Shown here: positions 12,758 to 64,000 of the stretch, in pieces
Numbering within the stretch: position 1 is the first letter of the stretch
How the letters are laid out: each line of letters starts with the position of its first letter
Assembly: GCF_041248615.1 (NCBI RefSeq)
Contig: NZ_CP158426.1
Reading direction: 5' to 3' (one strand)
Length of the DNA: 64,000 nt
Source of the DNA: Escherichia coli
GTDB lineage: Bacteria; Pseudomonadota; Gammaproteobacteria; Enterobacterales; Enterobacteriaceae
Notes under the pieces: generated by a model
Databases searched by the model: none
The model's input: only the letters and a program-made list of their open reading frames with translations
Told to the model about the DNA's origin: nothing
Translations under genes and position numbers: made by a program

Positions 12758-12930
12758 AAAGTTCTTTTGTGTTGCATTGCTGGCGTAAATGTCAGCAATG
12801 CAGCATTTCCTCACGATTCTCCTTTGACGATCGCACTTTTTGCTCGTTATGATGGCGTCGCTAGCCTCAGTAAATCCTTACTCCGGCGGTGCGCAACCCG
12901 TGCGCGTGAACCACTATCTGAATGCTCATC

Positions 12931-13863
12931 ATGCCGAAATTTCGAGTTTCTTTATTTAGCCTGGCCCTGATGCTGGCTGTGCCTTTGGCACCGCAGGCCG
13001 TTGCGAAAACGGCAGCCGCTACCACCGCTTCACAGCCGGAAATTGCCTCCGGTAGCGCGATGATTGTTGATCTGAATACCAACAAAGTGATCTATTCGAA
13101 CCACCCGGATCTGGTGCGTCCGATTGCGTCTATCAGCAAATTAATGACCGCGATGGTCGTGCTGGATGCGCGACTGCCGCTGGATGAAAAACTAAAAGTG
13201 GATATCAGCCAGACGCCGGAGATGAAAGGGGTCTATTCGCGCGTACGACTGAACAGCGAAATCAGCCGTAAAGATATGCTGTTGCTGGCGCTGATGTCTT
13301 CAGAAAACCGCGCGGCGGCAAGCCTTGCGCACCATTATCCCGGTGGTTACAAAGCCTTTATTAAGGCGATGAATGCGAAAGCGAAATCGCTCGGAATGAA
13401 CAACACGCGCTTTGTTGAACCGACCGGATTGTCGGTGCATAACGTTTCAACCGCCCGTGACTTAACCAAACTGCTCATTGCCAGCAAACAATATCCGTTG
13501 ATCGGGCAGTTAAGTACTACCCGGGAAGATATGGCAACCTTCTCTAACCCGACGTATACGCTGCCGTTCCGCAATACTAACCATCTGGTGTATCGCGATA
13601 ACTGGAATATTCAGTTAACCAAAACGGGCTTTACCAATGCGGCGGGCCATTGTCTGGTGATGCGTACGGTTATCAATAATAAACCGGTGGCGCTGGTAGT
13701 GATGGACGCGTTTGGCAAATATACCCATTTTGCCGATGCCAGCCGTCTGCGTACCTGGATTGAGACCGGTAAAGTAATGCCTGTTCCGGCAGCAGCGTTG
13801 AGCTATAAAAAACAAAAAGCCGCCCAGATGGCGGCGGCGGGGCAGACGGCACAGAACGATTAA
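12931..13863 (+). CDS. pbpG: D-alanyl-D-alanine endopeptidase (PBP7)
   Basis: signal peptide [25 protein letters not shown]; SxxK active site (SISK), SxN (SEN) and KTG motifs; 310 aa. Confidence 0.9.
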
Positions 13864-20340: not shown

Positions 20341-21259
20341 ATTTAGCCATGTCAGCAAACTGTTCGGCGCACAAAAAGCCGTTAACGATCTCAATCTCAA
20401 TTTTCAGGAGGGGAGTTTTTCGGTGCTGATTGGTACATCAGGCTCCGGTAAATCCACCACTCTGAAAATGATTAACCGCCTGGTGGAGCATGACAGCGGC
20501 GTGATCCGCTTTGCCGGAGAAGAAATTCGCTCGCTGCCAGTGCTGGAGTTGCGCCGCCGGATGGGCTATGCCATTCAATCTATTGGCCTGTTTCCCCACT
20601 GGAGCGTGGCGCAAAACATCGCTACCGTGCCGCAATTACAAAAATGGTCACGGGCGCGGATCGACGATCGTATCGACGAATTAATGGCGCTACTGGGGCT
20701 GGAGCCAAATTTGCGTGAGCGTTATCCACATCAGCTTTCTGGCGGTCAGCAGCAACGTGTGGGAGTGGCGCGCGCACTGGCTGCCGATCCGCAAGTCTTA
20801 CTGATGGATGAACCTTTTGGCGCACTGGACCCGGTAACGCGCGGCGCGTTGCAACAAGAGATGACGCGCATTCACCGTTTGCTGGGGCGCACTATTGTGC
20901 TGGTCACTCATGATATTGATGAGGCGCTACGGCTGGCAGAACATCTGGTATTGATGGATCACGGTGAAGTGGTGCAGCAGGGCAATCCGCTGACGATGCT
21001 GACTCGTCCGGCAAACGATTTTGTCCGCCAGTTTTTTGGGCGCAGCGAACTGGGTGTCCGCCTGCTTTCGTTACGTAGTGTGGCGGATTACGTGCGTCGC
21101 GAAGAACGGGCAGAAGGTGAGGCACTGGCAGAAGAGATGACGCTACGCGATGCGCTCTCCCTGTTTGTCGCGCGGGGATGCGAGGTGCTGCCGGTGGTGA
21201 ACACGCAGGGCCAGCCTTGCGGCACGCTGCATTTTCAGGATCTGCTGGTGGAGGCGTAA
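20333..21259 (+). CDS. yehX: glycine betaine ABC transporter ATP-binding protein
   Basis: Walker [13 protein letters not shown] signature LSGGQQQRV, Walker B LLMDEP; 308 aa. Confidence 0.9.
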
Positions 21260-33146: not shown

Positions 33147-33576
33147 ATATTCATCCCTGAAATGTATTAATGAAATAAACGATATTTTACGCGCAATAAA
33201 TGTTTGGCGCATTAGTTGTTTGAGCGAAAAATATCTGGAAAGCAGATCACAGTAAATAAAAAAACCTGCTGGTGAGGCAGGTTCTTTTATTTACTACAGT
33301 GACGCTAACTTGCTGATTGTGCAACATTTCGTACCAACGAATAAATTATAACCATATCCACACTCCATTGCAATTCAGTGAATGAGATTTATAATCCTGC
33401 CCGTTGGGAGGTTGTGCCGGATCGGACCAATTTTAAGTCCTGGCTGCTGGACGGGTGGTGCCGCAGGCGGTGCCCTGATCCGGAGAGCAACGTTTCGTAC
33501 CAACATACGTAAACCAGTATCGACAGGCAGTGTAAGGGTAAGGTGCTGGTGTTGCGCTCCTTAATAAGGAGAGCGG

Positions 33577-52074: not shown

Positions 52075-52109
52075 TACTCCCCCCCAGTACCTGATACTAC
52101 CCCCCAGTA
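52075..52109. promoter_or_regulatory. two RcnR operator sites (TACT-G6-N-AGTA) in the rcnA-rcnR divergent promoter region
   Basis: plus strand reads TACTCCCCCCCAGTA and TACTACCCCCCAGTA 5 bp apart; matches the published RcnR recognition motif. Confidence 0.8.
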
Positions 52110-52157
52110 GATTAATAGTGCTATGATTTTTCATATTCTTATTAACCAGGTGTTGCC

Positions 52158-52430
52158 ATGTCTCATACCATCCGTGATAAACAGAAACTGAAAGCGCGTG
52201 CCAGTAAGATTCAGGGCCAGGTCGTGGCGCTCAAGAAAATGCTCGACGAGCCGCACGAATGCGCTGCAGTTTTACAACAGATTGCTGCTATCCGTGGCGC
52301 GGTAAACGGTCTGATGCGGGAAGTGATTAAAGGTCATCTGACGGAACACATCGTTCACCAGGGGGATGAGCTAAAACGTGAAGAAGATCTGGATGTCGTT
52401 CTGAAGGTGCTGGATTCTTATATCAAATAA
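52158..52430 (+). CDS. rcnR: Ni/Co-responsive transcriptional repressor (CsoR/RcnR family)
   Basis: 90 aa; matches recalled RcnR; divergent from rcnA. Confidence 0.9.
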
Positions 52431-52519
52431 TTTATTAACGCTATTGTAAAACTGCCGTTTTTCCTCGTTTACAACGCGTGCGCTGGACATTACCATCCTC
52501 CTCTGCGATTTATCATCGC

Positions 52520-52600
52520 AACCAAACGACTCGGGGTGCCCTTCTGCGTGAAGGCTGAGAAATACCCGTATCACCTGATCTGGATAATGCCAGCGTAGGT
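52520..52600 (+). ncRNA. TPP riboswitch aptamer (thi-box) of the thiM leader
   Basis: AACCAAACGACTCGGGGTGCCCTTCTGCGTGAAGGCTGAGAAATACCCGTATCACCTGATCTGGATAATGCCAGCGTAGG matches the recalled E. coli thiM TPP aptamer; similarity ends at about 52600. Confidence 0.85.
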
Positions 52601-52654
52601 TGCCAACATTCTGATTAGTATTCATGTGGTTACATTTCTTTTTGTCCGTGTGTA

Positions 52655-53986
52655 ATGCACCTAATGTACAAAAAGAGCGTAAACATGAGGTACAAAACTC
52701 TTCCATACACGTTTCAAAGAAACGGTAATTACTATCTACAGATTCGGCTTTCGAATGGTCGGATGTATAAAAAATCACTTCTCACTGACAGCTATCGTGA
52801 AGTCTCTGCTTTGATGATTGGTGTTGCTCCGTACATTCCTTTTGTTAAATCATTAGCCATCACAATCCCGATGTTTGATGCCTTTGTTTCAAACCTGATT
52901 ATGTCAAAACTTAGGGCTGTAAAAGTTCCGCTGCTATCACATCAGTCGGTAATTACCCCTGCTACATTCGAGGAACCAGCGACACAAGCCGAACCGCAAA
53001 ACATGCTAACTCTTTCTGATGCGTGGGCTATGTATAAAGCGGAAAAGGGTAAAACATGGACAAAGTCGATCTCAAGGGCGAATGAGCGTTACATGGAAGT
53101 CTTGATGGTTGTCTTGGGAGAGACAACTGACGTAGTTGCGATTTCTAAGCAGGACATCAAGCAGGTGATGGAAGTTGTTGAGAATTTGCCTAAGCGTGTT
53201 GTCCAACCGTATCGCTCAATGAACATCCAGCAACTGATTGAATGTGATGATGTATCACCGAATGAGTTAGTAGGAGTGGAAGCCATTCATAAGCATCTCA
53301 AAATCTACAAATCGCTTTTCAAGACTTTTCTAACAGAAAACAAAGATATTTTGATTAAATCCCCAACTGATGGGGTAGTAGCAGCACCATCTAAAGCAAG
53401 GTTTGGAGCATACAGTTCGGCGGAGATGAAGAAGTTTGTAGAGTGGGCACTTAAGCAGCCAGATGGCTGGCAGAAGTGGATAACATTGTTGTTGGCATAC
53501 ACAGGAGCCAGAAGGGGAGAAATTGCCAAACTGGAAAAATCACAAATAAAATATGATGAGGATAGCCATCGGTATTATTTCCTGATTGCAGAAGGAGGGC
53601 AGGGGAAAACCGAAAATGCTACCCGACAAGTAGTGATACACCCTAAGTTGATCGAATGGGGTTTCATGGAATACGTTGATCGCCAGTGGAAAGAACGGAT
53701 TTTTTCAGAAGTGGCTGGTACAAACATGACGAAGATCGGTAAAGAATTTGCTGATGTGCGTGACCAGCTTGACATTCCGTACTTAGACGATTTTGGACAG
53801 CGGAGGCTTTTGCATAGCATTCGTCATTCTGTTTGCTCTACTGCGATGGCTGGATGGGTAAAGAACATCTTGCATCTGCAACAAACAGTAGGCCATGAGA
53901 AAAGTGGAGGGATCACTAAACGCTACTTACATACGTTCCCACTATCATCAATTTGTTATGTTATTGATGGGATTAGTTGGGTCTGA
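52655..53986 (+). CDS. tyrosine-type site-specific integrase (island integrase)
   Basis: C-terminal catalytic box LHSIRHS...GH...Y (R-H-R-Y tyrosine recombinase motif); true start may be the Met at 52685. Confidence 0.75.
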   Translation: MHLMYKKSVNMRYKTLPYTFQRNGNYYLQIRLSNGRMYKKSLLTDSYREVSALMIGVAPYIPFVKSLAITIPMFDAFVSNLIMSKLRAVKVPLLSHQSVITPATFEEPATQAEPQNMLTLSDAWAMYKAEKGKTWTKSISRANERYMEVLMVVLGETTDVVAISKQDIKQVMEVVENLPKRVVQPYRSMNIQQLIECDDVSPNELVGVEAIHKHLKIYKSLFKTFLTENKDILIKSPTDGVVAAPSKARFGAYSSAEMKKFVEWALKQPDGWQKWITLLLAYTGARRGEIAKLEKSQIKYDEDSHRYYFLIAEGGQGKTENATRQVVIHPKLIEWGFMEYVDRQWKERIFSEVAGTNMTKIGKEFADVRDQLDIPYLDDFGQRRLLHSIRHSVCSTAMAGWVKNILHLQQTVGHEKSGGITKRYLHTFPLSSICYVIDGISWV

Positions 53987-54203
53987 AACTGCTAAGAATG
54001 ATAGGAAAAGCTACTTAATGATCCTTAGTTTTGGATGAAATTGAAGATTACAAAGATCTTGAGCGAATAAGAGCGTTTTTTAATCAAAAAAGCCATAAAA
54101 ACTTTTCTTGACTGTATATTAACACAGTGCTTCTACTATGTAGAAGAAATCGACATGAAAAATTTGATATGGTAAATTTTATCCATGATAACAAAAAGGT
54201 ATT

Positions 54204-55106
54204 GTGGATATGTTACTACCAATACGAGTTCATAAACGATTTCTAACTTTATTTAAGACTTTGCAAATTGACGATTGCCCACCGCAATCAACTTTAAATA
54301 TTCATGTACTTAATATCGAAAGCAATGAATTTATATACTGTAAATTAGTTGAAGAATTACGTGACATAATAATTACTTATGTACATTCGAATAGAAGGCT
54401 TGAGGAGTTTAAGGAAAGTTATCCTTCGTATAGCCCTAAACCTTTTTTCGAAGCAATACAAAAATTTCGCAATTATACGTCAAACGAAGGTGAGTTAGGT
54501 GAACTGCTTTTATACGCTTTTCTTGAAACAGGACTAAATGCTCCGAAATTACTTTCCAAAATGCAATTGAAAACAGATTCTAATGATTACATTAAGGGTT
54601 CTGATGGTGTACATCTGTTAGAATTAGATGATGGTTATCAATTAATATTTGGAGAATCAAAGCTCTATGCCGATCTTTTAGAAGGTGCTCGAGAAGCGTT
54701 TGATTCTATTTTAGATTTTAAAAGTAATGGAATGGCATTTGAAAGAGGGCTGATAGATACACACGTTATAAATGAAATGGTTTCAGAAGAAGGTTATGAG
54801 AAAATAAAATCAATTCTTCTTCCTTCTTCTGGCGATGATGGGCCAGATCTTGATTTATCCTTTGGTATATTTCTTGGTTTTGAATTGAAAATAGATAGCT
54901 CACAGTTATCATTGAAAAACAAAGAGTTTAGAGATTGGGTTAATGAGTCCGTGAAACAACATGCTACTCGCGTGGTCAGTACGATACGAAGGAAAATTAT
55001 TAATCATAAATTATATGGTCACGAATTCCACATATATATAGTTCCTTTTACCGATATTGATGTTACACGAAAAAAATTAATTCATGAAATGCTAACAATT
55101 AAGTGA
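54204..55106 (+). CDS. PD-(D/E)xK-like putative nuclease, HamA-like (Hachiman-type effector candidate)
   Basis: 300 aa; motif ELDDGYQLIFGESK (D...ExK); stop overlaps the start of the downstream helicase gene by 4 nt; low GC, island context. Confidence 0.5.
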   Translation: MDMLLPIRVHKRFLTLFKTLQIDDCPPQSTLNIHVLNIESNEFIYCKLVEELRDIIITYVHSNRRLEEFKESYPSYSPKPFFEAIQKFRNYTSNEGELGELLLYAFLETGLNAPKLLSKMQLKTDSNDYIKGSDGVHLLELDDGYQLIFGESKLYADLLEGAREAFDSILDFKSNGMAFERGLIDTHVINEMVSEEGYEKIKSILLPSSGDDGPDLDLSFGIFLGFELKIDSSQLSLKNKEFRDWVNESVKQHATRVVSTIRRKIINHKLYGHEFHIYIVPFTDIDVTRKKLIHEMLTIK

Positions 55107-57691
55107 ACACTATGAATGAATTAAATTCAAGTAAAAACATTCATTTGGCAGCTCGTCTTGCAGATGATGCTTTTGAAAGTGCTTATTTTAAAGAAATCAA
55201 TAAGTTTATAAGTGGTTTATACAATTACAGTTTATTTAACTGCGATTCAGATGTTAGTCTCTCCGAGAGTGATAACAATAAAATAGCACACGCTTTGCGT
55301 TTTGCAGATATATTTTCACATTCTTCAAAAGAAAATCATAGATCATGTGCATTTGAAATTATAAGTAGAATAGCCTTATTAAAAAAACATGATCCTTATT
55401 TTAAATTTATAGGTACTGCTGTTATTAATCGGCTTGGGGTTTATGCAGCAGAAAAACTCATATCAAAAGGGGTAAAATTACCCTTAGATAGAGAAGTTGA
55501 TTCTATTATTAAAAAATCAGTTCAGAAAACAGATGAAGATGGAGTATATTTCACTGATAAACAACATGAGTTATACAAACTTTTAAAAAGTAGCAAAACA
55601 ATTAGTTTTGCTGGTCCCACTTCGATGGGAAAGTCATTTGTTATTAATGCATACATTAAGGAAATAACTCTTAAAAAAGAGCTTAAAAATATAGCTTTAA
55701 TTGTTCCTACACGGGCTTTAATAAGCCAAAATGCACTTAAGTTAAAAATTGATATTGCATTGTATAAGAATGAAAGCCCTTATAAAGTTGTTACGACATC
55801 CTACATTATTAATGGTGATGAAAGTAAAAATAAAGGCTATATTTTTATTCTCACCCCAGAAAGGCTGGTTAGTCTCATAAGCACTATTCCTGGACTAATG
55901 ATTGATTATGTTTTTGTAGATGAAGCTCAAAAGTTAACAACAAAAAATGATTCGAGGAGTCTTGTTACTTATTCAGCTATAGAGCAAACAATTAGTAAAA
56001 ATCCTGAGGCAAGATTATTCTTCTCTTCACCTAATTTATCTAATCCTGAAATATTTAATATTTTGTTTGATAGAAAAGACGCTTCGGTATATAGAAATAC
56101 AGAAGGTGCAACTACTCAGAATATGTATTTTATTGATCTTTTAAATAGCAGCTTTAGCTATGTTAATACCGAGAAAAGGACGCTTGAAAAAATAGATGAG
56201 ATCTCTAATACTTACACGAATACAAATGATGTTATCTATAAATTAAATAATGGTAAAAGTAAAATAATTTATTGTGGGGGGATAGAAAGCACGCTTGAGA
56301 GAACACGTAGCTTTATCAATTATCTCAAAATTAATAAGAAAAAAAGAAAGCATTTAAATTTAGAAATATCTTCTGAGATAAGAAACTTTGTTCATGATAA
56401 CTATGAACTTGCAGAAGCCATCAACTATGGTGTTGCTTTCCACTTTGGAAACTTGCCTCAATCGATTCGAGATTTAATTGAGCATCATTTCAAAATAGGA
56501 AATATTGACTATCTATTCTGTACATCAACCCTACTTGAGGGAGTCAATTTACCTGCAAGATCCGTATTTATTCTTACGCATAAAAAAGGCCCCAGTCCAT
56601 TAGAGTCGGTTGATTTTTGGAATCTGGCTGGGAGAGCTGGGCGATTATCTATGGAATTGTCAGGGGATATTTTTTGTATTAGGGATGATAATAAGCTTTG
56701 GAATAAAAAAGCTGTTGATAATATCCTTCTGTCTGACAAAAATAACATTTCATTAAAGCCAAGCTTCTATATTGAAGACGAAAAAAGATTGAACGATTTA
56801 CACCATATAATTACGACTGGTAAAACAGGGAATATTAAAAATGCTGAGTTCCTTAGAACTTTAGGAGATATGATAAGAATAGACACTCTGAGGGATTCTA
56901 AAGAACTTCCTCTTATTAGTTATTTCCAAAGCAGTGGAAAATCAGAAATTTTGTTAAGTGCAGAAAAAAGCACTGAAAATATTACCATGCCAATGAATAT
57001 CCTTTTGGCAAATAGTCATATTGCGATTGATTCGCAGTATCATGCTTTTAAAAAAATAAAAAGCCTTACAGTTAAGGAACTGAAATTATCATGGCAGCCT
57101 ACATACGAAGAAATTAAAGAAAAATTGAATTTGATATTCGATATTTACCAAGTTGAAAAGTTTGCAACAGGTAGAGAACGTCTTTATTTAAATTCAATTC
57201 CATATTATGCAGTATTACTGTTTCAATGGATTCGTGGAAATAGTCTACAGGAAATTATCTCGGGGGCAATTGCTTATAGAAAGAACAAAAGTATATATAT
57301 TAAAAATACACCTGTTCTTTTTGACAGCGAAAACCCAGCTCATTTAACTGCATTAGTTAATGAAACTATAAAAGACATTGAGTTGCGTGTAGGTTACCAG
57401 TTACAAAATTATTTTTCACATTACTGTCAGCTTCTGAATTATGTGTTACAAGGAAATCCAGGGGCAAACTGGTCTCAGTTCATTGAGTTTGGCTCTAATG
57501 AGCCAATAGTATGGCACCTACAAATGATGGGCTTTTCAAGGGATAGTGCAGTTTTTCTCAAGAAGAATTTTTCAAAACATCTTAAACTTGATAATGAAAT
57601 GAATAAACTCATCATAATGGATAAGGAACTGATCAAGCGTTCTTTCAAAAAAGATGGACTACATTACTTAGAAATCCAATCGTTATTATAA
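55103..57691 (+). CDS. SF2 helicase, HamB-like (Hachiman-type helicase candidate)
   Basis: 862 aa; Walker A AGPTSMGKS, Walker B FVDEAQK, SSP motif, motif V TSTLLEGVNLP and motif VI AGRAGR. Confidence 0.55.
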   Translation: MNTMNELNSSKNIHLAARLADDAFESAYFKEINKFISGLYNYSLFNCDSDVSLSESDNNKIAHALRFADIFSHSSKENHRSCAFEIISRIALLKKHDPYFKFIGTAVINRLGVYAAEKLISKGVKLPLDREVDSIIKKSVQKTDEDGVYFTDKQHELYKLLKSSKTISFAGPTSMGKSFVINAYIKEITLKKELKNIALIVPTRALISQNALKLKIDIALYKNESPYKVVTTSYIINGDESKNKGYIFILTPERLVSLISTIPGLMIDYVFVDEAQKLTTKNDSRSLVTYSAIEQTISKNPEARLFFSSPNLSNPEIFNILFDRKDASVYRNTEGATTQNMYFIDLLNSSFSYVNTEKRTLEKIDEISNTYTNTNDVIYKLNNGKSKIIYCGGIESTLERTRSFINYLKINKKKRKHLNLEISSEIRNFVHDNYELAEAINYGVAFHFGNLPQSIRDLIEHHFKIGNIDYLFCTSTLLEGVNLPARSVFILTHKKGPSPLESVDFWNLAGRAGRLSMELSGDIFCIRDDNKLWNKKAVDNILLSDKNNISLKPSFYIEDEKRLNDLHHIITTGKTGNIKNAEFLRTLGDMIRIDTLRDSKELPLISYFQSSGKSEILLSAEKSTENITMPMNILLANSHIAIDSQYHAFKKIKSLTVKELKLSWQPTYEEIKEKLNLIFDIYQVEKFATGRERLYLNSIPYYAVLLFQWIRGNSLQEIISGAIAYRKNKSIYIKNTPVLFDSENPAHLTALVNETIKDIELRVGYQLQNYFSHYCQLLNYVLQGNPGANWSQFIEFGSNEPIVWHLQMMGFSRDSAVFLKKNFSKHLKLDNEMNKLIIMDKELIKRSFKKDGLHYLEIQSLL

Positions 57692-57697
57692 AACTGC

Positions 57698-57727
57698 CGA
57701 ATCAGAGTCTTTTATTGATTCTGATTC
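57698..57727 (+). terminator. hairpin downstream of the helicase gene (no clear U-tract)
   Basis: CGAATCAGA-(loop)-TCTGATTCG. Confidence 0.35.
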
Positions 57728-57999
57728 GCACTTATATAGTTAAATCAAAAGGAGCATTAAAATTTTTCAGTAGCGATTTAGTATGCTAAATCGCTGCATA
57801 ACGAATCTGCTTCTAAATCTTGATTAAGTGTTTCGAACTGCCTTGATTGTTTATTGCTACACTTTATAATTAATCGCAACACACAAAACAATACAATGTA
57901 GGCAGTTGCACAGAATTAATTACAGGCACATTATGGATATCGAGAGGATTCGAACAGTTTTAAACTGCAAGCCCTTTGACTTTATCCCCTCCTACTATA

Positions 58000-58575
58000 T
58001 CAGCGTTTGATGCCGCTAATACTGGCAAGCATTTCTTTCTTCACACGAAAAACTGTAGCCCTGCCGCAATCACATAACTTTGCTATCTCGTCTGGTGTAT
58101 TCTTCCCGGCCTGTAACATATCGATAATCTTGTTATGTAGCTCTTTGTTCTTTTGCTTGCCCTTGTACTTCTTAGCCTCTTTAGCAAGAGCAATCCCCTC
58201 ATTGCGACGAGATGCGATCATACCCCGCTCAAATTCTGCAGCGGCTCCCATCATGGTTAGGATAAGGCGTGATTGTGGGGAATTATCAAAACTCATAGAG
58301 TTTGCAAGGAATTGAACAGTGATTCCACGAGCCACGAGGTTATCAATCATTTCCAGCAAATCGCGGGTATTACGTGCAAGGCGATCAATCGAGTGAGTAA
58401 CGAGCGTGTCACCTTCGCGGAGGTGTGAAAGCAGGTTCAACAATTCAGGTCTTTCGCTGGTGGACTTACCTGATTCTTTCTCTGCCACAATTTTGTCACA
58501 AACAGGTTCCAGCACTGCCAACTGACGCTCAAGATTTTGATCCTTTGTTGAGACTCTCGCGTAACCAAAAATCAT
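58000..58575 (-). CDS. serine recombinase (resolvase/invertase family)
   Basis: N-terminal catalytic domain MIFGYARVSTKDQ with catalytic Ser, C-terminal HTH; 191 aa. Confidence 0.85.
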   Translation of the reverse strand: MIFGYARVSTKDQNLERQLAVLEPVCDKIVAEKESGKSTSERPELLNLLSHLREGDTLVTHSIDRLARNTRDLLEMIDNLVARGITVQFLANSMSFDNSPQSRLILTMMGAAAEFERGMIASRRNEGIALAKEAKKYKGKQKNKELHNKIIDMLQAGKNTPDEIAKLCDCGRATVFRVKKEMLASISGIKR

Positions 58576-58589
58576 TTTCCTGCCCTCAC

Positions 58590-58665
58590 TTACGTGAAAA
58601 GTATCATTTGAATTTACTTAATGATACAGTATCATTTAAATGCATTCAACATCTAAATGATACTA
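58590..58665. promoter_or_regulatory. res-like recombinase binding site (imperfect inverted repeats) upstream of the serine recombinase gene
   Basis: repeated TATCATTT(A/G)AAT half-sites in inverted orientation (GTATCATTTGAAT...ATGATACA; TATCATTTAAATG...ATCTAAATGATAC). Confidence 0.5.
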
Positions 58666-59125
58666 AACGAGACGAGAAAAGCGAGTATCGTTAGGGAGTA
58701 CCCAAAAGAGATTTTTGATCGTGCGTTTTTTAGTCAATGTAGGGTTAGTGAAAAGTTCAGTACCGAGATCTGAGTTCACGGCATTTTGTCGACGGGGTTG
58801 AACCTGATTAGGCGAACGAGATTTTAAATCAGGCGGAATAAAACAAGTTGTACTTTTATCTGAGTAAAAGATCCCTTTAACTTTTTAGTCAGAAATCGTG
58901 ATACTAGGGGTTTGGTTATTTTGTGTCCTTAAGGCCAGTACTTTTAGCGAGGACGAAAAAACGGCCTACATGAGAACGCTTACAGTAACTTAAGTATATT
59001 ATCCAAAAAGTCACTTAACTTAAATCAATTTGGATGCAAAATCGCCACACTTTGCAAGTGAACACATACCGGGCAACAAGCAAATAAAAAAGGCCACTTT
59101 CGCGACCTTGTACCAGTACAAACAC

Positions 59126-59485
59126 TCATTCAGAACGATCAAGTACCATATATGCTGGCTGACACATGCTGCCCCGCTCCTGTAGCCAGTAGTAATCAAG
59201 ATCGGCAACACGCACGTCCAATCCAGAATCTACACGGTTGATCTGTAACCGTAGCCCTACAGTATCCTTGTACGATAAACCAGATTTAACATTGTATTTG
59301 TACTTAACACCGTTTTCCTGTTCAAACTGTTTAAGGAAAGGCGTCATTTGTTTCTGAATTTCTTTCAAACAAATAACCTCATTATCAATAGCAAAGGGGG
59401 GTTCTGTTTTTCCATCAGGTACAGCAGCCTGTAAATGAAAGGAAGTACTCAACAATAACAGCATTGCAACAGAAGTCTTTTTCAT
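59126..59485 (-). CDS. small secreted protein of unknown function
   Basis: 119 aa; cleavable signal peptide MKKTSVAMLLLLSTSFHLQA; 43 nt downstream of the membrane protein gene. Confidence 0.6.
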   Translation of the reverse strand: MKKTSVAMLLLLSTSFHLQAAVPDGKTEPPFAIDNEVICLKEIQKQMTPFLKQFEQENGVKYKYNVKSGLSYKDTVGLRLQINRVDSGLDVRVADLDYYWLQERGSMCQPAYMVLDRSE

Positions 59486-59528
59486 TTTAATTCCTTATTA
59501 AAGAACAGTACATTATATTTCAATGGAC

Positions 59529-60569
59529 TTAATAACAATATTTTATATTTCCTTCGGGTTTTCTCATGCATTTAATTCCTTCAGGAATATAATCAGTTAC
59601 GGGAGCAGGTCTGGCATCAGGTCTTGAAAGACGATTGGATATAGAAGACAACAGACTGAAAACACACTCATTAAATGATTTTTGATATTTATTTTTTTCA
59701 TAAAAGTACTGCATGGTGATTTTATCTCTTTCGTATTGCAATTCTTTGCCAAGCTGAATCCTATCCATATCAATTCCATTTCTCATAGCATTAAATCTTT
59801 CGTTCAATAAATTAAATTGAGATTTATTCCATTCATTTAAAGGAAATAAAGAATTGTTAAGCCTTTGCCTACAATTAGATTGCTCGATAGCTGACATGTA
59901 TTCTTTCATACTAACGCCAATATCTAAGTATGTGAGTTGTCCAGCAGTTCTATCAACTGAGTTATTAGGGTAAGATTTAATTTCAGTAAGTATTGACTCT
60001 GTTAATACTGCATTTTCTTCTAAATCTTTGCTAATAGTTATTTGAGCTTGTTCTCTTTTATCCTTATCAAATATTGAAATGTATTTCTTTACTATATCCT
60101 GATTAGCTTTCTCGGCTGCTACTAACGCATCTTGAACCTTCTTTTCCGCCGCTTTAACTCGTTGTTCTTCTACAAATTTCGCGTAGTCATCAGTATTTGT
60201 AATGTGATTTTCACGAGCGATAGAAAACTCTTTACTATCTTTAAAACCAAGTTTTTGTGCTCTGGCTCCATCGCTTGAAGATCGGGCAGAACTTGCCACG
60301 AAAGCGAGCACAATGATCAGTACAGGAACCGTATAATTATTAACGAGTTTATAGGGTAAGAACTTCGCTTTAAGCGTACCATAACCCAAAACAGCCCAGC
60401 CTATCGCGGCAGTACTTGCCAGTAGCTGGCACAATCCAGCGACGGAAAGCATGATTACCGACCAGAAGCCTGTACCGACTGCGAAAAGATCACCAAATTT
60501 CTCCATTGACGCAAGGAATAAAAACACTCCCCAAATGCCATAAAATCCTATTTTCAAATATTTACTCAC
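59529..60569 (-). CDS. 3-TM membrane protein with large charged coiled-coil-like C-terminal domain, unknown function
   Basis: 346 aa; three N-terminal hydrophobic helices followed by a K/E/Q-rich soluble domain. Confidence 0.6.
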   Translation of the reverse strand: MSKYLKIGFYGIWGVFLFLASMEKFGDLFAVGTGFWSVIMLSVAGLCQLLASTAAIGWAVLGYGTLKAKFLPYKLVNNYTVPVLIIVLAFVASSARSSSDGARAQKLGFKDSKEFSIARENHITNTDDYAKFVEEQRVKAAEKKVQDALVAAEKANQDIVKKYISIFDKDKREQAQITISKDLEENAVLTESILTEIKSYPNNSVDRTAGQLTYLDIGVSMKEYMSAIEQSNCRQRLNNSLFPLNEWNKSQFNLLNERFNAMRNGIDMDRIQLGKELQYERDKITMQYFYEKNKYQKSFNECVFSLLSSISNRLSRPDARPAPVTDYIPEGIKCMRKPEGNIKYCY

Positions 60570-60779
60570 CGCAATTATCCTTTAATAATTTTCCAAATCG
60601 ATGGTTCGTTCTATTTGTATTATCGACAATAATTCGTTTGCCTTTAGGTAGATCCCTTAAAAAGGAATCCCCCCAAAATTTATAGATTAGCAGTTGTACC
60701 ACTCTCACTGTTTTGTCACTCCCATTATCTTCTCTCAGGTCAAAAGTACGGACTTAAAGCCGTCCGTGTTCAGGTGCTC

Positions 60780-60900
60780 AAGAGTAGCACGCATATCAAT
60801 AAATGATCGATAAAAACGATCAATTAATGGCTTATTGATCGCTATAACCTATCAATGACTATTAATTCAATACAAATCAATAGGTAAAATCGATCAAGAG
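60780..60900. repeat. AT-rich cluster of ATCAAT/ATTGAT repeats with GATC sites (iteron/origin-like or protein-binding array)
   Basis: five ATCAAT/ATTGAT copies and four GATC sites within about 120 bp, in an ORF-free region. Confidence 0.45.
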
Positions 60901-61552
60901 GATTCGTCATCCATGAAAGGGGTTATGTATCTGATTTCAATACAGGGAGTATTAGCGATACCATCACGCAAACGCTCTTAAAGCGTAGCTACGGCGTTTT
61001 GTAGGGTTTTTGGTCATTCATGTGTGTCAGTAATGAACATCGCATTCAGGGGCTTCCTGTGCGTTTTGTCCGAAACACCATCATGAAGGGGGACAGATCG
61101 GATCGGGGTCGCTTCGCTCTGGTCAGTACTGGATAGTTCTTTTCCAGTAACTGAAACCGCAGATACCCCACTAAGTACACAAAGGAATTATTTGTAGAAT
61201 AAGTAATGAAATAACAGTCAGTTATGTACTTACTGACAGAACTAAAAACGCGATTAGGTTCGCTCTGTCAGTGACCGAAGGGAACGCAACAGTAGAATCT
61301 AATCCAGCGAACAGTACACGCAAGCGGGTGCTGTTTAATTGTTTTATCTATGTAAACAATGGGATAGCTATCAAGTACTCACTGCGTGAGCACTCTCACT
61401 AACTACCCGAAACAGTTCGCTTGCTTCGCCGCTCCTACTTTCAGGTAGTTAATTCGCTTTCGCTCGTTGTGATGTCCGAAATTTATTACCTATAGTATTA
61501 TAAGGTATTATTTTCCGGACATTTATGTATTTTTATGATGGTGTTCTGGACA

Positions 61553-63028
61553 TCATTTTTTGCTTTTTTGTACTTCCTTTTCGTATTTGTTCCACATAGC
61601 CTTTTGCTCTTCGGGACTGAGTGCTGTATTACCACTGGCAAGAAACACCTTGAACGCTTCTAACTCAAGCCCTGGGTTGCGGCTTTTCCAGCGGCGAAAA
61701 CGCTTAGCGTGATTATCATCAAGAGTGAAACGCTTTTGCTTATTCTTTGAACCTTGCGGCCTGCCTCTCGACCTCTGCTCATCATCAATACCGATATCTA
61801 TATACTCAATATTATCTGTAAGAGATCTGGCTTGCCATTCATCAAAAACATAAACAGTCTGTGTTTCAGTACTGTCAAAATCCCTTGAAATTCCTCGTAG
61901 TACGAACTGGTGTAAACTTTCGTACTCCCTCGCAACATGTATCGCCTCGCCGTCAATCTCAAAGAACAATTCGCACTGTTTAGCCTCTGTTTCAGAGGGA
62001 CGCATACAAGCGAGCCAGACGCACGTGAGCAAGTGTTGGTACTGGTTAAACCCTCTGGCATCCGGGCTTATCTCTGTGCCGTTTTTGAGGCTCTGAGAAT
62101 CGCTTTTGTTCTTCGTCCAGTAGAAATCCTGTCCCTCAAGTTTTTTATCAATAAATGAGTATATTTTTTGTACTTTATCAGGGTTATTAGTCTTCCATGT
62201 CTTCGATAGTTTTTGATTTTTTGAGAAGTAATAAACCTTTAATCTGTCTTTGAGAGCTGTTTTTCGTGTCAGTAATCCTCCAAGTTCAGTACTTTCAAAG
62301 AGTTCTTTATTGCCTTTATAGATCAATGAATTTTCGAAATTAGCTCCGAGAAAGGTGATTGATACGTCTTTGTACTTACTGAGATCTTTCCATGCGGTAA
62401 TATTAAGCTGTTCCTTTTTCGCATCGGTAAAGTACTCATTATTCATGATGAACATATCATTTTCGTTAATTGCTGGTAGCTGGTTCAAAATATTCTTCAG
62501 TACTTCCCCTTGTATTTCTGGTTTTCTTTCTGCCGCAATATACATATTTTTATCATCTAATGTCAGTACATTGTGTATTAATGAATTAAGAATTGTATTT
62601 TTTATATTAGTATCACCCTCATTAATATTCTGAAAAGAGTGAAAATTAGTAACGTCGTCAATATAAATATTACAGTCAGATAACAATTCAGGAGGAATTT
62701 TGAAAAACGTTTTATCTGTTATGAGTAATGTTTTATTACTTCCAGATGAAAGAAAGTTAATAACTGAATTAATAACACTTTCATCTTTTGGTACTGTATC
62801 TGTAATTATATACTCGCAATTATTGATTTGCTTTGCTGTCTGCTTAATAAGTTCTTGAGTGTTCTGTACTAAAATATATTTTTCAGTACTGTTATTGATT
62901 ATATTGCATATAGCAGTAGTTTTACCTGAACCACAAGGGGCGGAGACATACTTAAATTTATTATAAATAGGTGTGGGATTAATCATTTGTACACGCTCCA
63001 TATTGATTAATGTAGAAAGGTCAGCCAT
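61553..63028 (-). CDS. P-loop NTPase with C-terminal AT-hook (RGRP-GSKNK) DNA-binding tail, unknown family
   Basis: 491 aa; Walker A APCGSGKTT near the N-terminus, candidate Walker B NIYIDDV; C-terminal RSRGRPQGSKNKQKR matches the AT-hook consensus. Confidence 0.6.
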   Translation of the reverse strand: MADLSTLINMERVQMINPTPIYNKFKYVSAPCGSGKTTAICNIINNSTEKYILVQNTQELIKQTAKQINNCEYIITDTVPKDESVINSVINFLSSGSNKTLLITDKTFFKIPPELLSDCNIYIDDVTNFHSFQNINEGDTNIKNTILNSLIHNVLTLDDKNMYIAAERKPEIQGEVLKNILNQLPAINENDMFIMNNEYFTDAKKEQLNITAWKDLSKYKDVSITFLGANFENSLIYKGNKELFESTELGGLLTRKTALKDRLKVYYFSKNQKLSKTWKTNNPDKVQKIYSFIDKKLEGQDFYWTKNKSDSQSLKNGTEISPDARGFNQYQHLLTCVWLACMRPSETEAKQCELFFEIDGEAIHVAREYESLHQFVLRGISRDFDSTETQTVYVFDEWQARSLTDNIEYIDIGIDDEQRSRGRPQGSKNKQKRFTLDDNHAKRFRRWKSRNPGLELEAFKVFLASGNTALSPEEQKAMWNKYEKEVQKSKK

Positions 63029-63359
63029 TCCAGTGTCTGGCCTTTCGTTGTTTTAGTTATTAGTCTTTTTGAGTTGCGACAACTGCAAGAGAATGTTTAT
63101 AAACAAGTGAAATAAGCAGTTTTACCGCCTCAAAAGCTACAGTCAGTTTCGTAATTATTTTCGAAAGCATCGTAAATTTCACTTCGCTATCTTCTATGCA
63201 AAAATTAGCAGCCTGAGGTATTTAATGATTGAGATGTGGCCTGTTGATAAGAGGGTTTGTATTGCTTGTTCTGCTCTTTGTTAATTTGTGACTTATTCCT
63301 TTCACAATGATCGGCTATGTTTGATAACTCTGTTAGGAAATCACCTATGGCTACCATAT

Positions 63360-64000
63360 TGGATTTGCCCCTATATTTCCAGACACCTGTTATCACTTAA
63401 CCCATTACTGGCCTGCTGCCGCAGATATTCCCGTGGCGAGCGATAACCCAGTGCACTATGCGGATGCCATTCGTTATAATGCTCGAACGCCTCTGCAAGG
63501 TTCTTTGCTGCCGTTAACCCGTCTGGTTTAGGCATGATACTGATGTAGTCACGCTTTATCGTTTTCACGAAGCTCTCTGCTATGCCGTTACTCTCCGGAC
63601 TCCGCACCGCCGTGTTCTTCGGTTCAAGCCCCAATATCCGGGCAAACTGCCGTGTTTCATTAGCCCGGTAGCATGAACCATTATCCGTCAGCCACTCTAC
63701 TGGAGACGCCGGAAGCTCGTTGCCGAAGCGGCGTTCCACCGCTCCCAGCATGACGTCCTGTACTGTTTCACTGTCGAAGCCGCCCGTAGTGACTGCCCAG
63801 TGCAGTGCCTCACGGTCACAGCAGTCCAGCGCGAACGTGACTCGCAGTTTTTCTCCGTTATCACAGCGGAACTCGAACCCGTCAGAGCACCATCGTTGAT
63901 TGCTTTCTTTCACGGCCACTTTGCCAGTATGTGCCCGTTTCGATGGCGGTACAGCGGTTTTTCGCTCAAGCAACAGCGCATTCTGGCGCATGATCCGGTA
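63360..64000 (-). mobile_element. IS2 (IS3 family), partial; right terminal inverted repeat at about 63360, element runs past the window end
   Basis: terminus TGGATTTGCCCCTATATTTCCAGACA matches the recalled IS2 end; encoded protein matches the recalled IS2 InsD (OrfB) C-terminus. Confidence 0.85.
63371..64000 (-). CDS. insD: IS2 transposase OrfB (InsD), 3' portion; 5' end beyond the window
   Basis: translation ...[39 protein letters not shown]...[19 protein letters not shown] matches recalled InsD (DDE integrase core). Confidence 0.85.

Follow-up and report, generated by a model that had tools for sequence, protein, structure and literature searches.

Why does the aptamer of a thiamine pyrophosphate (TPP) riboswitch stand directly in front of an integrase gene? 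The question is raised by a 64,000-nucleotide stretch of Escherichia coli DNA (contig NZ_CP158426.1, assembly GCF_041248615.1; the whole stretch is called the window below), in which the sequence of the thiM TPP aptamer runs up to position 52599 and a tyrosine integrase gene begins at 52685 on the same strand. An earlier note on this DNA, made from the sequence alone, suggested that the arrangement could make integrase expression and island excision responsive to thiamine and could separate thiMD from its riboswitch. The present analysis leads to another answer. The region is very probably the integrase-side junction (attL) of an integrative defence island that uses the DNA of the thiM aptamer as its attachment site, and the aptamer beside the integrase is probably a leftover rather than a thiamine sensor.

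The two junctions of the island and the empty site

Alignment of the window with the empty site of E. coli K-12 demonstrates identity up to ...GCCAGCGTAGG (52599) and unrelated DNA from there on. Upstream of this break lie the end of rcnR (52430) and the native thiM promoter with its start site (52468–52503, + strand; -35 hexamer TTTACA at 52468–73, 17-nt spacer, -10 hexamer TACCAT at 52491–96), which now faces the island and is the sole sigma-70-like promoter found by a promoter scan of 52100–53100. The start site is placed at 52503, 7 nt past the -10 hexamer, because in the numbering of Bastet et al. (PMC5499598) the U of the thiM AUG is position 152 (mutant U152A) and the ATG lies 133 nt past the equivalent of 52520. 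The 80-nt block of identity with K-12 (52520–52599, + strand, ending with GCGTAGG) comprises the 5' leader and helices P2–P5 of the aptamer and represents the displaced host fragment. The Rfam TPP model (RF00059) matches 52522–52617 (+) with 58.0 bits, over its gathering score of 54.3 bits; the last 18 nt of the match (52600–52617) are island DNA occupying the position of the P1 3' strand. TTGCCAAC stands where the native P1 3' strand GGAAGTC was, and in the Rfam alignment two of the five P1 pairs are standard and three are non-standard, with helices P2–P5 being 100% native. The junction copy therefore shares with the native E. coli thiM riboswitch (RF00059; PMC5499598) the same 80 nt, the same promoter and the same start site, but it is devoid of the P1 3' strand, the GA of the junction J4/1, the anti-sequestering and sequestering stems and thiM itself, and is followed by the integrase instead.

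The opposite end of the island is located beyond the window. In strain KE55, which is 98.9% identical to the window across 31 kb (the alignment stops at window position 63359), the inserted segment is bounded by a perfect direct repeat (80/80 nt, spacing 11,326 bp). The repeat (AACCAAACGACTC...GCCAGCGTAGG) is the same as window positions 52520–52599, and the K-12 empty site consists of the left flank, a single repeat and the right flank. Coordinates of the far junction were taken from E. coli NRZ14408 (NZ_LT599825.1; locus L002), treated as the genome of the window. There the repeat recurs at the window equivalent of 65185–65264 (L002 13857–13936). The island (52600–64000 and on past the window, + strand) measures 12.7 kb and reaches ~1.2 kb past the window end on account of the IS3 insertion at 63360. 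The far copy continues into native GAAGTCACGG..., the expression platform, thiM and thiD. Its aptamer matches RF00059 with 71.2 bits and has four of the five P1 pairs, as compared to 58.0 bits and a broken P1 at the integrase side; its 80 nt are island-borne and its P1 3' strand and expression platform are native. Thus, thiMD keeps a riboswitch after the insertion and only the native promoter is lost. The perfect repeat, the empty site in K-12 and the complete far copy followed by thiMD together make this a textbook case of site-specific insertion with regeneration of the target. The integrase at the end, direct repeats, a regenerated target together with a displaced fragment, and an empty site in relatives are features of target-restoring elements of the Islander type, with the difference that the target is the thiM leader and no tRNA is involved.

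These data bear on several statements of the earlier note. It had described the aptamer as intact up to GCCAGCGTAGG, which agrees with the identity through 52599 but passes over the fact that neither the P1 3' strand nor the junction GA is left; the replacement of the native expression platform and thiM start by island DNA was seen correctly, as was the distance of 55–85 nt to an integrase reading frame on the same strand. The suspected uncoupling of thiMD from its riboswitch does not take place, since the check proposed for the other junction reveals an expression platform rebuilt in front of thiM.

The integrase (433 aa; 52685–53986, + strand; annotated by RefSeq) matches PF00589 in Pfam at residues 248–417 (E = 8.7e-07) and phrog_1 in PHROG (E = 2.2e-25), and its catalytic residues Arg277, His377, Arg380, His404 and Tyr414 are invariant across an alignment of 15 sequences. 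The program-made reading frame starts at 52655; the start at 52685, 85 nt past the break, is preferred because the RefSeq annotation, the conserved N-terminus MRYKT and a conserved Shine-Dalgarno sequence agree on it. Catalysis of integration and excision at the flanking repeats by this enzyme is indirectly supported by the exact empty site and the repeat. Homologues of the integrase form 455 cluster representatives in the protein collection (E <= 1e-10), and the named sources of the best 120 of these clusters are almost all Enterobacterales. A scan for homologous loci, with one genome per species picked by integrase homology alone (54–84% identity), gave 28 loci from ~20 genera of Enterobacterales with differing cargo. 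All 28 have the aptamer on the strand of the integrase, with its end ...GCCAGCGTAG 84–104 nt before the integrase start. Further downstream, the fetched DNA of 11 of the 28 loci contains another aptamer copy with thiM behind it, and so do both E. coli genomes examined; in one more locus (L005) the DNA stops just past the second copy. The inserted segments across the loci span 3.4–11.4 kb.

Proposed recombination core and putative island promoter of thiMD

From locus to locus the repeat keeps the same right edge, with a left edge that differs (26–103 nt). In elements with an intact integrase every mismatch between the two copies is situated to the left of GCCAGCGTAG, the rightmost being in the L5 loop of locus L010. 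The island DNA right of the repeat mirrors the P4/P5 strand of the aptamer, and in the window this creates an imperfect inverted repeat at 52575–52618 (centre GTAG, 52595–52598) with the aptamer strand CTGATCTGGATAATGCCAGC on one side and island GTTGCCAACATTCTGATTAG on the other. In the second integrase clade the corresponding sequence is GGATAATGCCAG-CGTAGTC-CTGGCGATTATCC. In the minimum-energy structure predicted for the junction RNA, the arms of the window's dyad pair with each other. The fixed right edge, the distribution of mismatches and the dyad centred on GTAG suggest a crossover within the final ~10 nt of the repeat (GCCAGCGTAGG), on the right side of the L5 loop, with its exact position deduced from sequence comparison. 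Positions 52575–52618 are proposed to be the recombination core with two inverted integrase half-sites around the crossover, one of which would be supplied by the sequence of the aptamer P4/P5 hairpin, as tRNA stem-loops do in other islands.

Two direct repeats (A/G)(T/G)GTACAAA are located at 52664–52694 (+ strand; 52664–72 and 52688–94), the second overlapping codons 2–4 of the integrase. The GGTACA-type motif occurs thrice more near the right end of the island (L002 13745–13775), and it changes between the clades at both ends together (GGTACA versus GGACACA/GTCACACA). Clustering at both island ends and this covariation make the repeats candidate arm-type integrase-binding sites; the mere count of RGGTACA is not above chance (4 sites at the locus, reached in 52 of 200 shuffles).

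The right ends of the islands share a common order of elements: often an intrinsic terminator, then the arm-type repeats, CTTGCRTCAGCAAGC-ACTTCCCCTAAKCTGGCAAAAAGTA (CTTGCRTCAGCAAGC-ACTTCCCCTAAKCTGG) and the aptamer. The hexamers of this promoter-like module (TTGCAT-17-TAAGCT) are at the same distance from the aptamer as those of the native promoter (TTTACA-17-TACCAT, in other genera TTTACA-17-TATCCT), and in several islands an intrinsic terminator immediately precedes the module. Judging from this positional homology, from the terminators and from the remnant found in E. coli O157:H7, the module appears to replace the native promoter of thiMD. In O157:H7 strain ECP19-2498 (L032 11730–14135) a ~2.2-kb remnant remains between rcnR and thiM, lacking the integrase, the junction copy of the aptamer and the native thiM promoter. 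Its island-type right end (TGGGGTACA...GCTTGCATCTGCAAGC...CCCCTAAGCTGG) stands immediately before an intact TPP riboswitch and thiMD. As only this module precedes the riboswitch, expression of thiMD in this lineage appears to depend on island-derived DNA. In six loci (L005, L006, L008, L021, L022 and L025) an island-type module GCTTGCGTCAGCAAGC-ACTTCCCCTAAKCTGGCAAAAAGTA is also found on the host side, ~110 nt upstream of the integrase-side aptamer, in the place of TTTACA-17-TATCCT of other genera, which suggests remnants of earlier islands or tandem insertions at the same site.

Two other features of the right ends were observed. A perfect or near-perfect palindrome GCTTGC-NNNN-GCAAGC (L002 ~13795–13812, L022 ~20955–20972), conserved between different island types, overlaps the proposed island -35 hexamer and might be bound by a protein. 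Some right ends (L008 18200–18330, L014 13400–13495, L016, L025, L028 and L031) contain an inverted partial copy of the 3' half of the aptamer (e.g. GACTTCCCGCTGGCATTATCCAGATCAGGG) followed by a small hairpin (ATTAACGGGACGTTAAT), 60–100 nt upstream of the direct aptamer copy. It was considered as a riboswitch of the minus strand and rejected, giving no Rfam match even at E <= 10; it may bind the integrase as an additional site or act as an RNA that pairs with the aptamer.

The whole arrangement may be put together as follows. The tyrosine integrase very probably takes the thiM aptamer DNA as the chromosomal attachment site and would cross over in the final ~10 nt of the repeat, using the P4/P5 hairpin sequence as one half-site. 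The island carries its own first 80 nt of the riboswitch behind the promoter-like module, so that after integration thiMD has a complete riboswitch: the putative promoter and the 5' part of the aptamer come from the island, the P1 3' strand and the expression platform are native. The displaced host promoter and 5' part of the aptamer are left fused to the integrase leader, and the integrase-side copy is in this view a by-product of target restoration that also belongs to the recombination site. Transcription of the integrase probably passes through the aptamer, from the host thiM promoter in the integrated state and from the thiM-like promoter of the island in the excised circle, and a local hairpin at the Shine-Dalgarno sequence is predicted to dampen its translation, independently of TPP.

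Thiamine and the expression of the integrase

The island-derived leader of the integrase (52600–52684, + strand) contains neither a consensus promoter nor an intrinsic terminator in 52600–52685 according to the scan of 52100–53100. With the thiM promoter and start site (52503) upstream and nothing of this kind in between, read-through from 52503 into the integrase gene is plausible. The transcript proposed in the earlier note, the aptamer fused to the integrase leader, is therefore conceivable, and the insulating terminator or promoter that was to be looked for in 52600–52655 is not found.

The consequence drawn from this transcript, namely a response of the integrase to thiamine, finds no support in the predicted RNA structures. 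Folding was performed with ViennaRNA, either freely or with the aptamer fold P1–P5 enforced, and the native thiM leader served as a control. Upon enforcing the aptamer, the unpaired probability of the native Shine-Dalgarno sequence falls from 0.34 to 0.00, in agreement with the published behaviour of this leader, whereas that of the integrase stays the same (0.04 and 0.04). The integrase Shine-Dalgarno sequence (AAGAG, 52673–77) is already covered by the inner stem 52636–45/52668–77 of a predicted leader hairpin (52618–52693, z = -1.9); in the fold comparison suggested in the earlier note, the ribosome-binding site is thus predicted to be sequestered in either case and not by the aptamer. The leader stem is kept in 12 members of the clade with only compatible single-sided changes and almost no compensatory ones. 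The alignments of the two clades reveal neither a replacement for the P1 3' strand nor a conserved pairing of the aptamer with the leader. The junction copy scores as an aptamer, but its closing helix P1 is broken and it has no expression platform: the enforced fold changes nothing at the Shine-Dalgarno sequence, and no terminator follows. Regulation by TPP riboswitches runs through formation of P1 (PMC5499598), and the related E. coli tbpA riboswitch stops sensing when P1 cannot form (PMC8609307). The copy beside the integrase is thus not regarded as a working riboswitch because both the P1 3' strand and the expression platform are missing. Degraded elements (L027 and L031) have decayed junction copies, and L010, whose integrase is intact, has an altered L5 loop.

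Several observations weigh against the interpretation of the region as a mobile junction with a silent aptamer. An excision product (a circular junction or a restored empty site within one strain) was not observed, and no excisionase was found among the small reading frames of the island by PADLOC, PHROGs and NCBIfam. A search with the integrase gave no match in the phage collection and only two distant ones (38–42% identity), with no close homologue, in the plasmid collection. No consensus promoter of the + strand is seen upstream of the far junction; the island hexamers are weak (3/6 and 3/6) and fail the scan. The leader hairpin shows little covariation. Finally, the intact P2–P5 arms could retain some affinity for the ligand, and the lack of a TPP response is deduced in silico by equilibrium folding, which ignores co-transcriptional effects and Rho. 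As a separate remark, the 42%-identical relative of the integrase (NZ_OL790696.1 594666–595619, H83) lies at another place, in a chromosome-sized (4.8 Mb) E. coli record listed in the plasmid collection.

The explanation that competes best, although we consider it rather unlikely, concerns transcription. It is possible that the integrase is insulated from thiM, being expressed from a weak promoter of its own in 52600–52684 and controlling itself through the arm-type repeats, in which case the aptamer would matter only as DNA. The overlap of the arm-type-like repeats with the integrase Shine-Dalgarno sequence and start fits such a scheme, as does the leader of the sister clade, where TTGACT (5/6 match to the -35 consensus) is followed after 17 nt by TAATGC; a long, structured, untranslated leader could also be sensitive to Rho. 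However, no promoter in 52600–52685 passes the consensus scan, the candidate -10 hexamers are devoid of the critical last T, there is no intrinsic terminator, and the GC hairpin of the sister clade (GGCCGAAATTCGGCC) has no U-tract.

That the aptamer beside the integrase still binds TPP and makes expression of the integrase and excision responsive to thiamine appears highly improbable. The reading of the integrase from the thiM promoter and start site without an intervening terminator or consensus promoter, together with the fully native P2–P5, speaks for it, and excision to the inferred circle would return the integrase to a position downstream of a thiM-like promoter and these 80 nt, which would build this arrangement into the element. 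On the other hand, the P1 3' strand and the GA of J4/1 are gone without a conserved replacement in either integrase clade; the predicted accessibility of the Shine-Dalgarno sequence and AUG does not depend on the aptamer fold, in contrast to the native control, which switches; sensing of TPP requires P1 (PMC8609307; PMC5499598); the island-borne copy is already accounted for by the restoration of thiM; and the decay in L027 and L031 and the mutated loop of L010 count against it as well. The pairing of the island half-site with the P4/P5 strand makes a ligand-sensitive alternative fold conceivable, and with it a variant in which the aptamer without P1 is a working part: TPP on the sensor arms would compete with the hairpin 52575–52618 (P4/P5 strand and island half-site). 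We give this variant equally little credence; if true, TPP would shift the folding of the leader, access of Rho or translation and thereby tie integration and excision to the thiamine status of the cell. An assembly artefact, or homologous recombination or duplication instead of site-specific integration, can practically be dismissed: an 80-nt repeat could support RecA-mediated events, but 191 complete E. coli genomes share this junction and carry the integrase at >=90% DNA identity, and 28 species with differing cargo always have the adjacent integrase and the fixed right boundary of the repeat.

Cargo, distribution and significance of the thiM island

Downstream of the integrase, the island harbors the genes of a type I Hachiman anti-phage system, in which HamA and HamB are adjacent and on the same strand (54204–57691, +). 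These are hamA (DUF1837; reading frame 54204–55106, RefSeq start 54210; PADLOC HamA1, E = 2.4e-120) and the helicase gene hamB (reading frame 55103–57691, RefSeq start 55112; PADLOC HamB1, E = 8.3e-296). They are followed on the minus strand by a homologue of serine recombinases/DNA invertases (58000–58575; phrog_125, E = 3.6e-57) and by a helicase-like protein of 491 aa (61553–63028; phrog_2467 of unknown function, E = 1e-38). The latter also has a weak match, far under the curated cutoff, to the N-terminus of the plasmid replication protein CyRepA1, and it may provide a replication function for the excised element. An IS3-family insertion (63360–64000 and on past the window, minus strand; RefSeq IS3 transposase), absent from the island of KE55, interrupts a 74-aa reading frame (KE55 L001 31053–31277, minus strand) that gave no match in PADLOC, PHROGs and NCBIfam. 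The junction at 63360 is seen in 1 of 5,426 genomes. Elsewhere in the window, Rfam matches were obtained for the OrzO-P antitoxin RNA (33258–33331, -; 88.8 bits), suggesting a type I toxin-antitoxin locus of the zor-orz kind, and for the Peptidase-S11 RNA motif (12846–12926, +; 72.8 bits).

A census of 5,424 E. coli genomes found the site uninterrupted in 4,728 and interrupted in 696 (12.8%); in the listed examples of interrupted genomes the homology break falls at the repeat start or within ~40 nt of it. Islands in the interval rcnR–thiM are contained in a supplementary table of Hochhauser 2023 with the mobile-element type 'None', and the McrX island of E. coli B was described as 'adjacent to thiM' (PMC5487053). 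They have the same chromosomal location and small defence cargo, but the searchable text of both sources gives the location only, with no integrase, riboswitch, attachment site or mechanism.

The element resembles known integrative elements in several respects. Like the tRNA/tmRNA islands and prophages (Williams 2002; Islander, PMC4383910), it has a tyrosine integrase at its end and uses a highly conserved structured-RNA target with a stem-loop dyad; it likewise carries a copy of the target, so that a regenerated target and a displaced fragment mark its ends (PMC4383910). These islands enter RNA genes, whereas the thiM island enters the cis-regulatory riboswitch aptamer of an mRNA leader, and the part it replaces is the 5' one together with the promoter rather than the 3' one. 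The displaced fragment is consequently a promoter-bearing 5' piece reading into the integrase. SXT/R391 elements at prfC perform the same kind of 5'-end replacement, with SXT supplying a promoter too, and the host gene stays functional. A similar layout is known for dusA-specific integrases, which likewise act at the 5' end of a host transcription unit with an adjoining integrase and a replacement 5' end (PMC4482086). The targets at dusA and prfC are 5' ends of protein-coding sequences, whereas the thiM island touches no coding sequence and replaces promoter, leader and aptamer; its supply of the 5' part of the aptamer is demonstrated by the repeat copies, and its supply of a promoter is suggested by positional homology, the upstream terminators and the O157:H7 remnant, although the hexamers fail the consensus scan. 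Structured RNAs other than tRNA also serve as specific sites in the case of rybB (hotspot 29, PMC10121019) and of the ffs 4.5S RNA in Enterococcus (PMC12540744), but these are free-standing RNA genes and the thiM site is a metabolite-sensing mRNA leader. A literature search found no paper naming a riboswitch as an attachment site; the library was incomplete, and this is no proof of novelty. A riboswitch aptamer in this role thus seems to be undescribed in the searchable literature.

The findings extend the logic of tRNA/tmRNA attachment, where a conserved, symmetric sequence encoding a structured RNA is restored by the element, to a riboswitch aptamer. They explain the recurrent variable locus with defence systems between rcnR and thiM in ~13% of complete E. 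coli genomes and in many Enterobacterales. A riboswitch match beside an integrase should be read first as the scar of an attachment site, and the integrase with its ~80-nt site could be used as a tool for site-specific integration with a naturally conserved landing pad. For the host, this means that a mobile element swaps the promoter and the sensor domain of an operon for its own copies. An island-derived module is now the sole promoter-like region before thiMD in O157:H7 and apparently in several other genera, so that important lineages may rely on DNA left by a mobile element for expressing a thiamine-biosynthesis operon.

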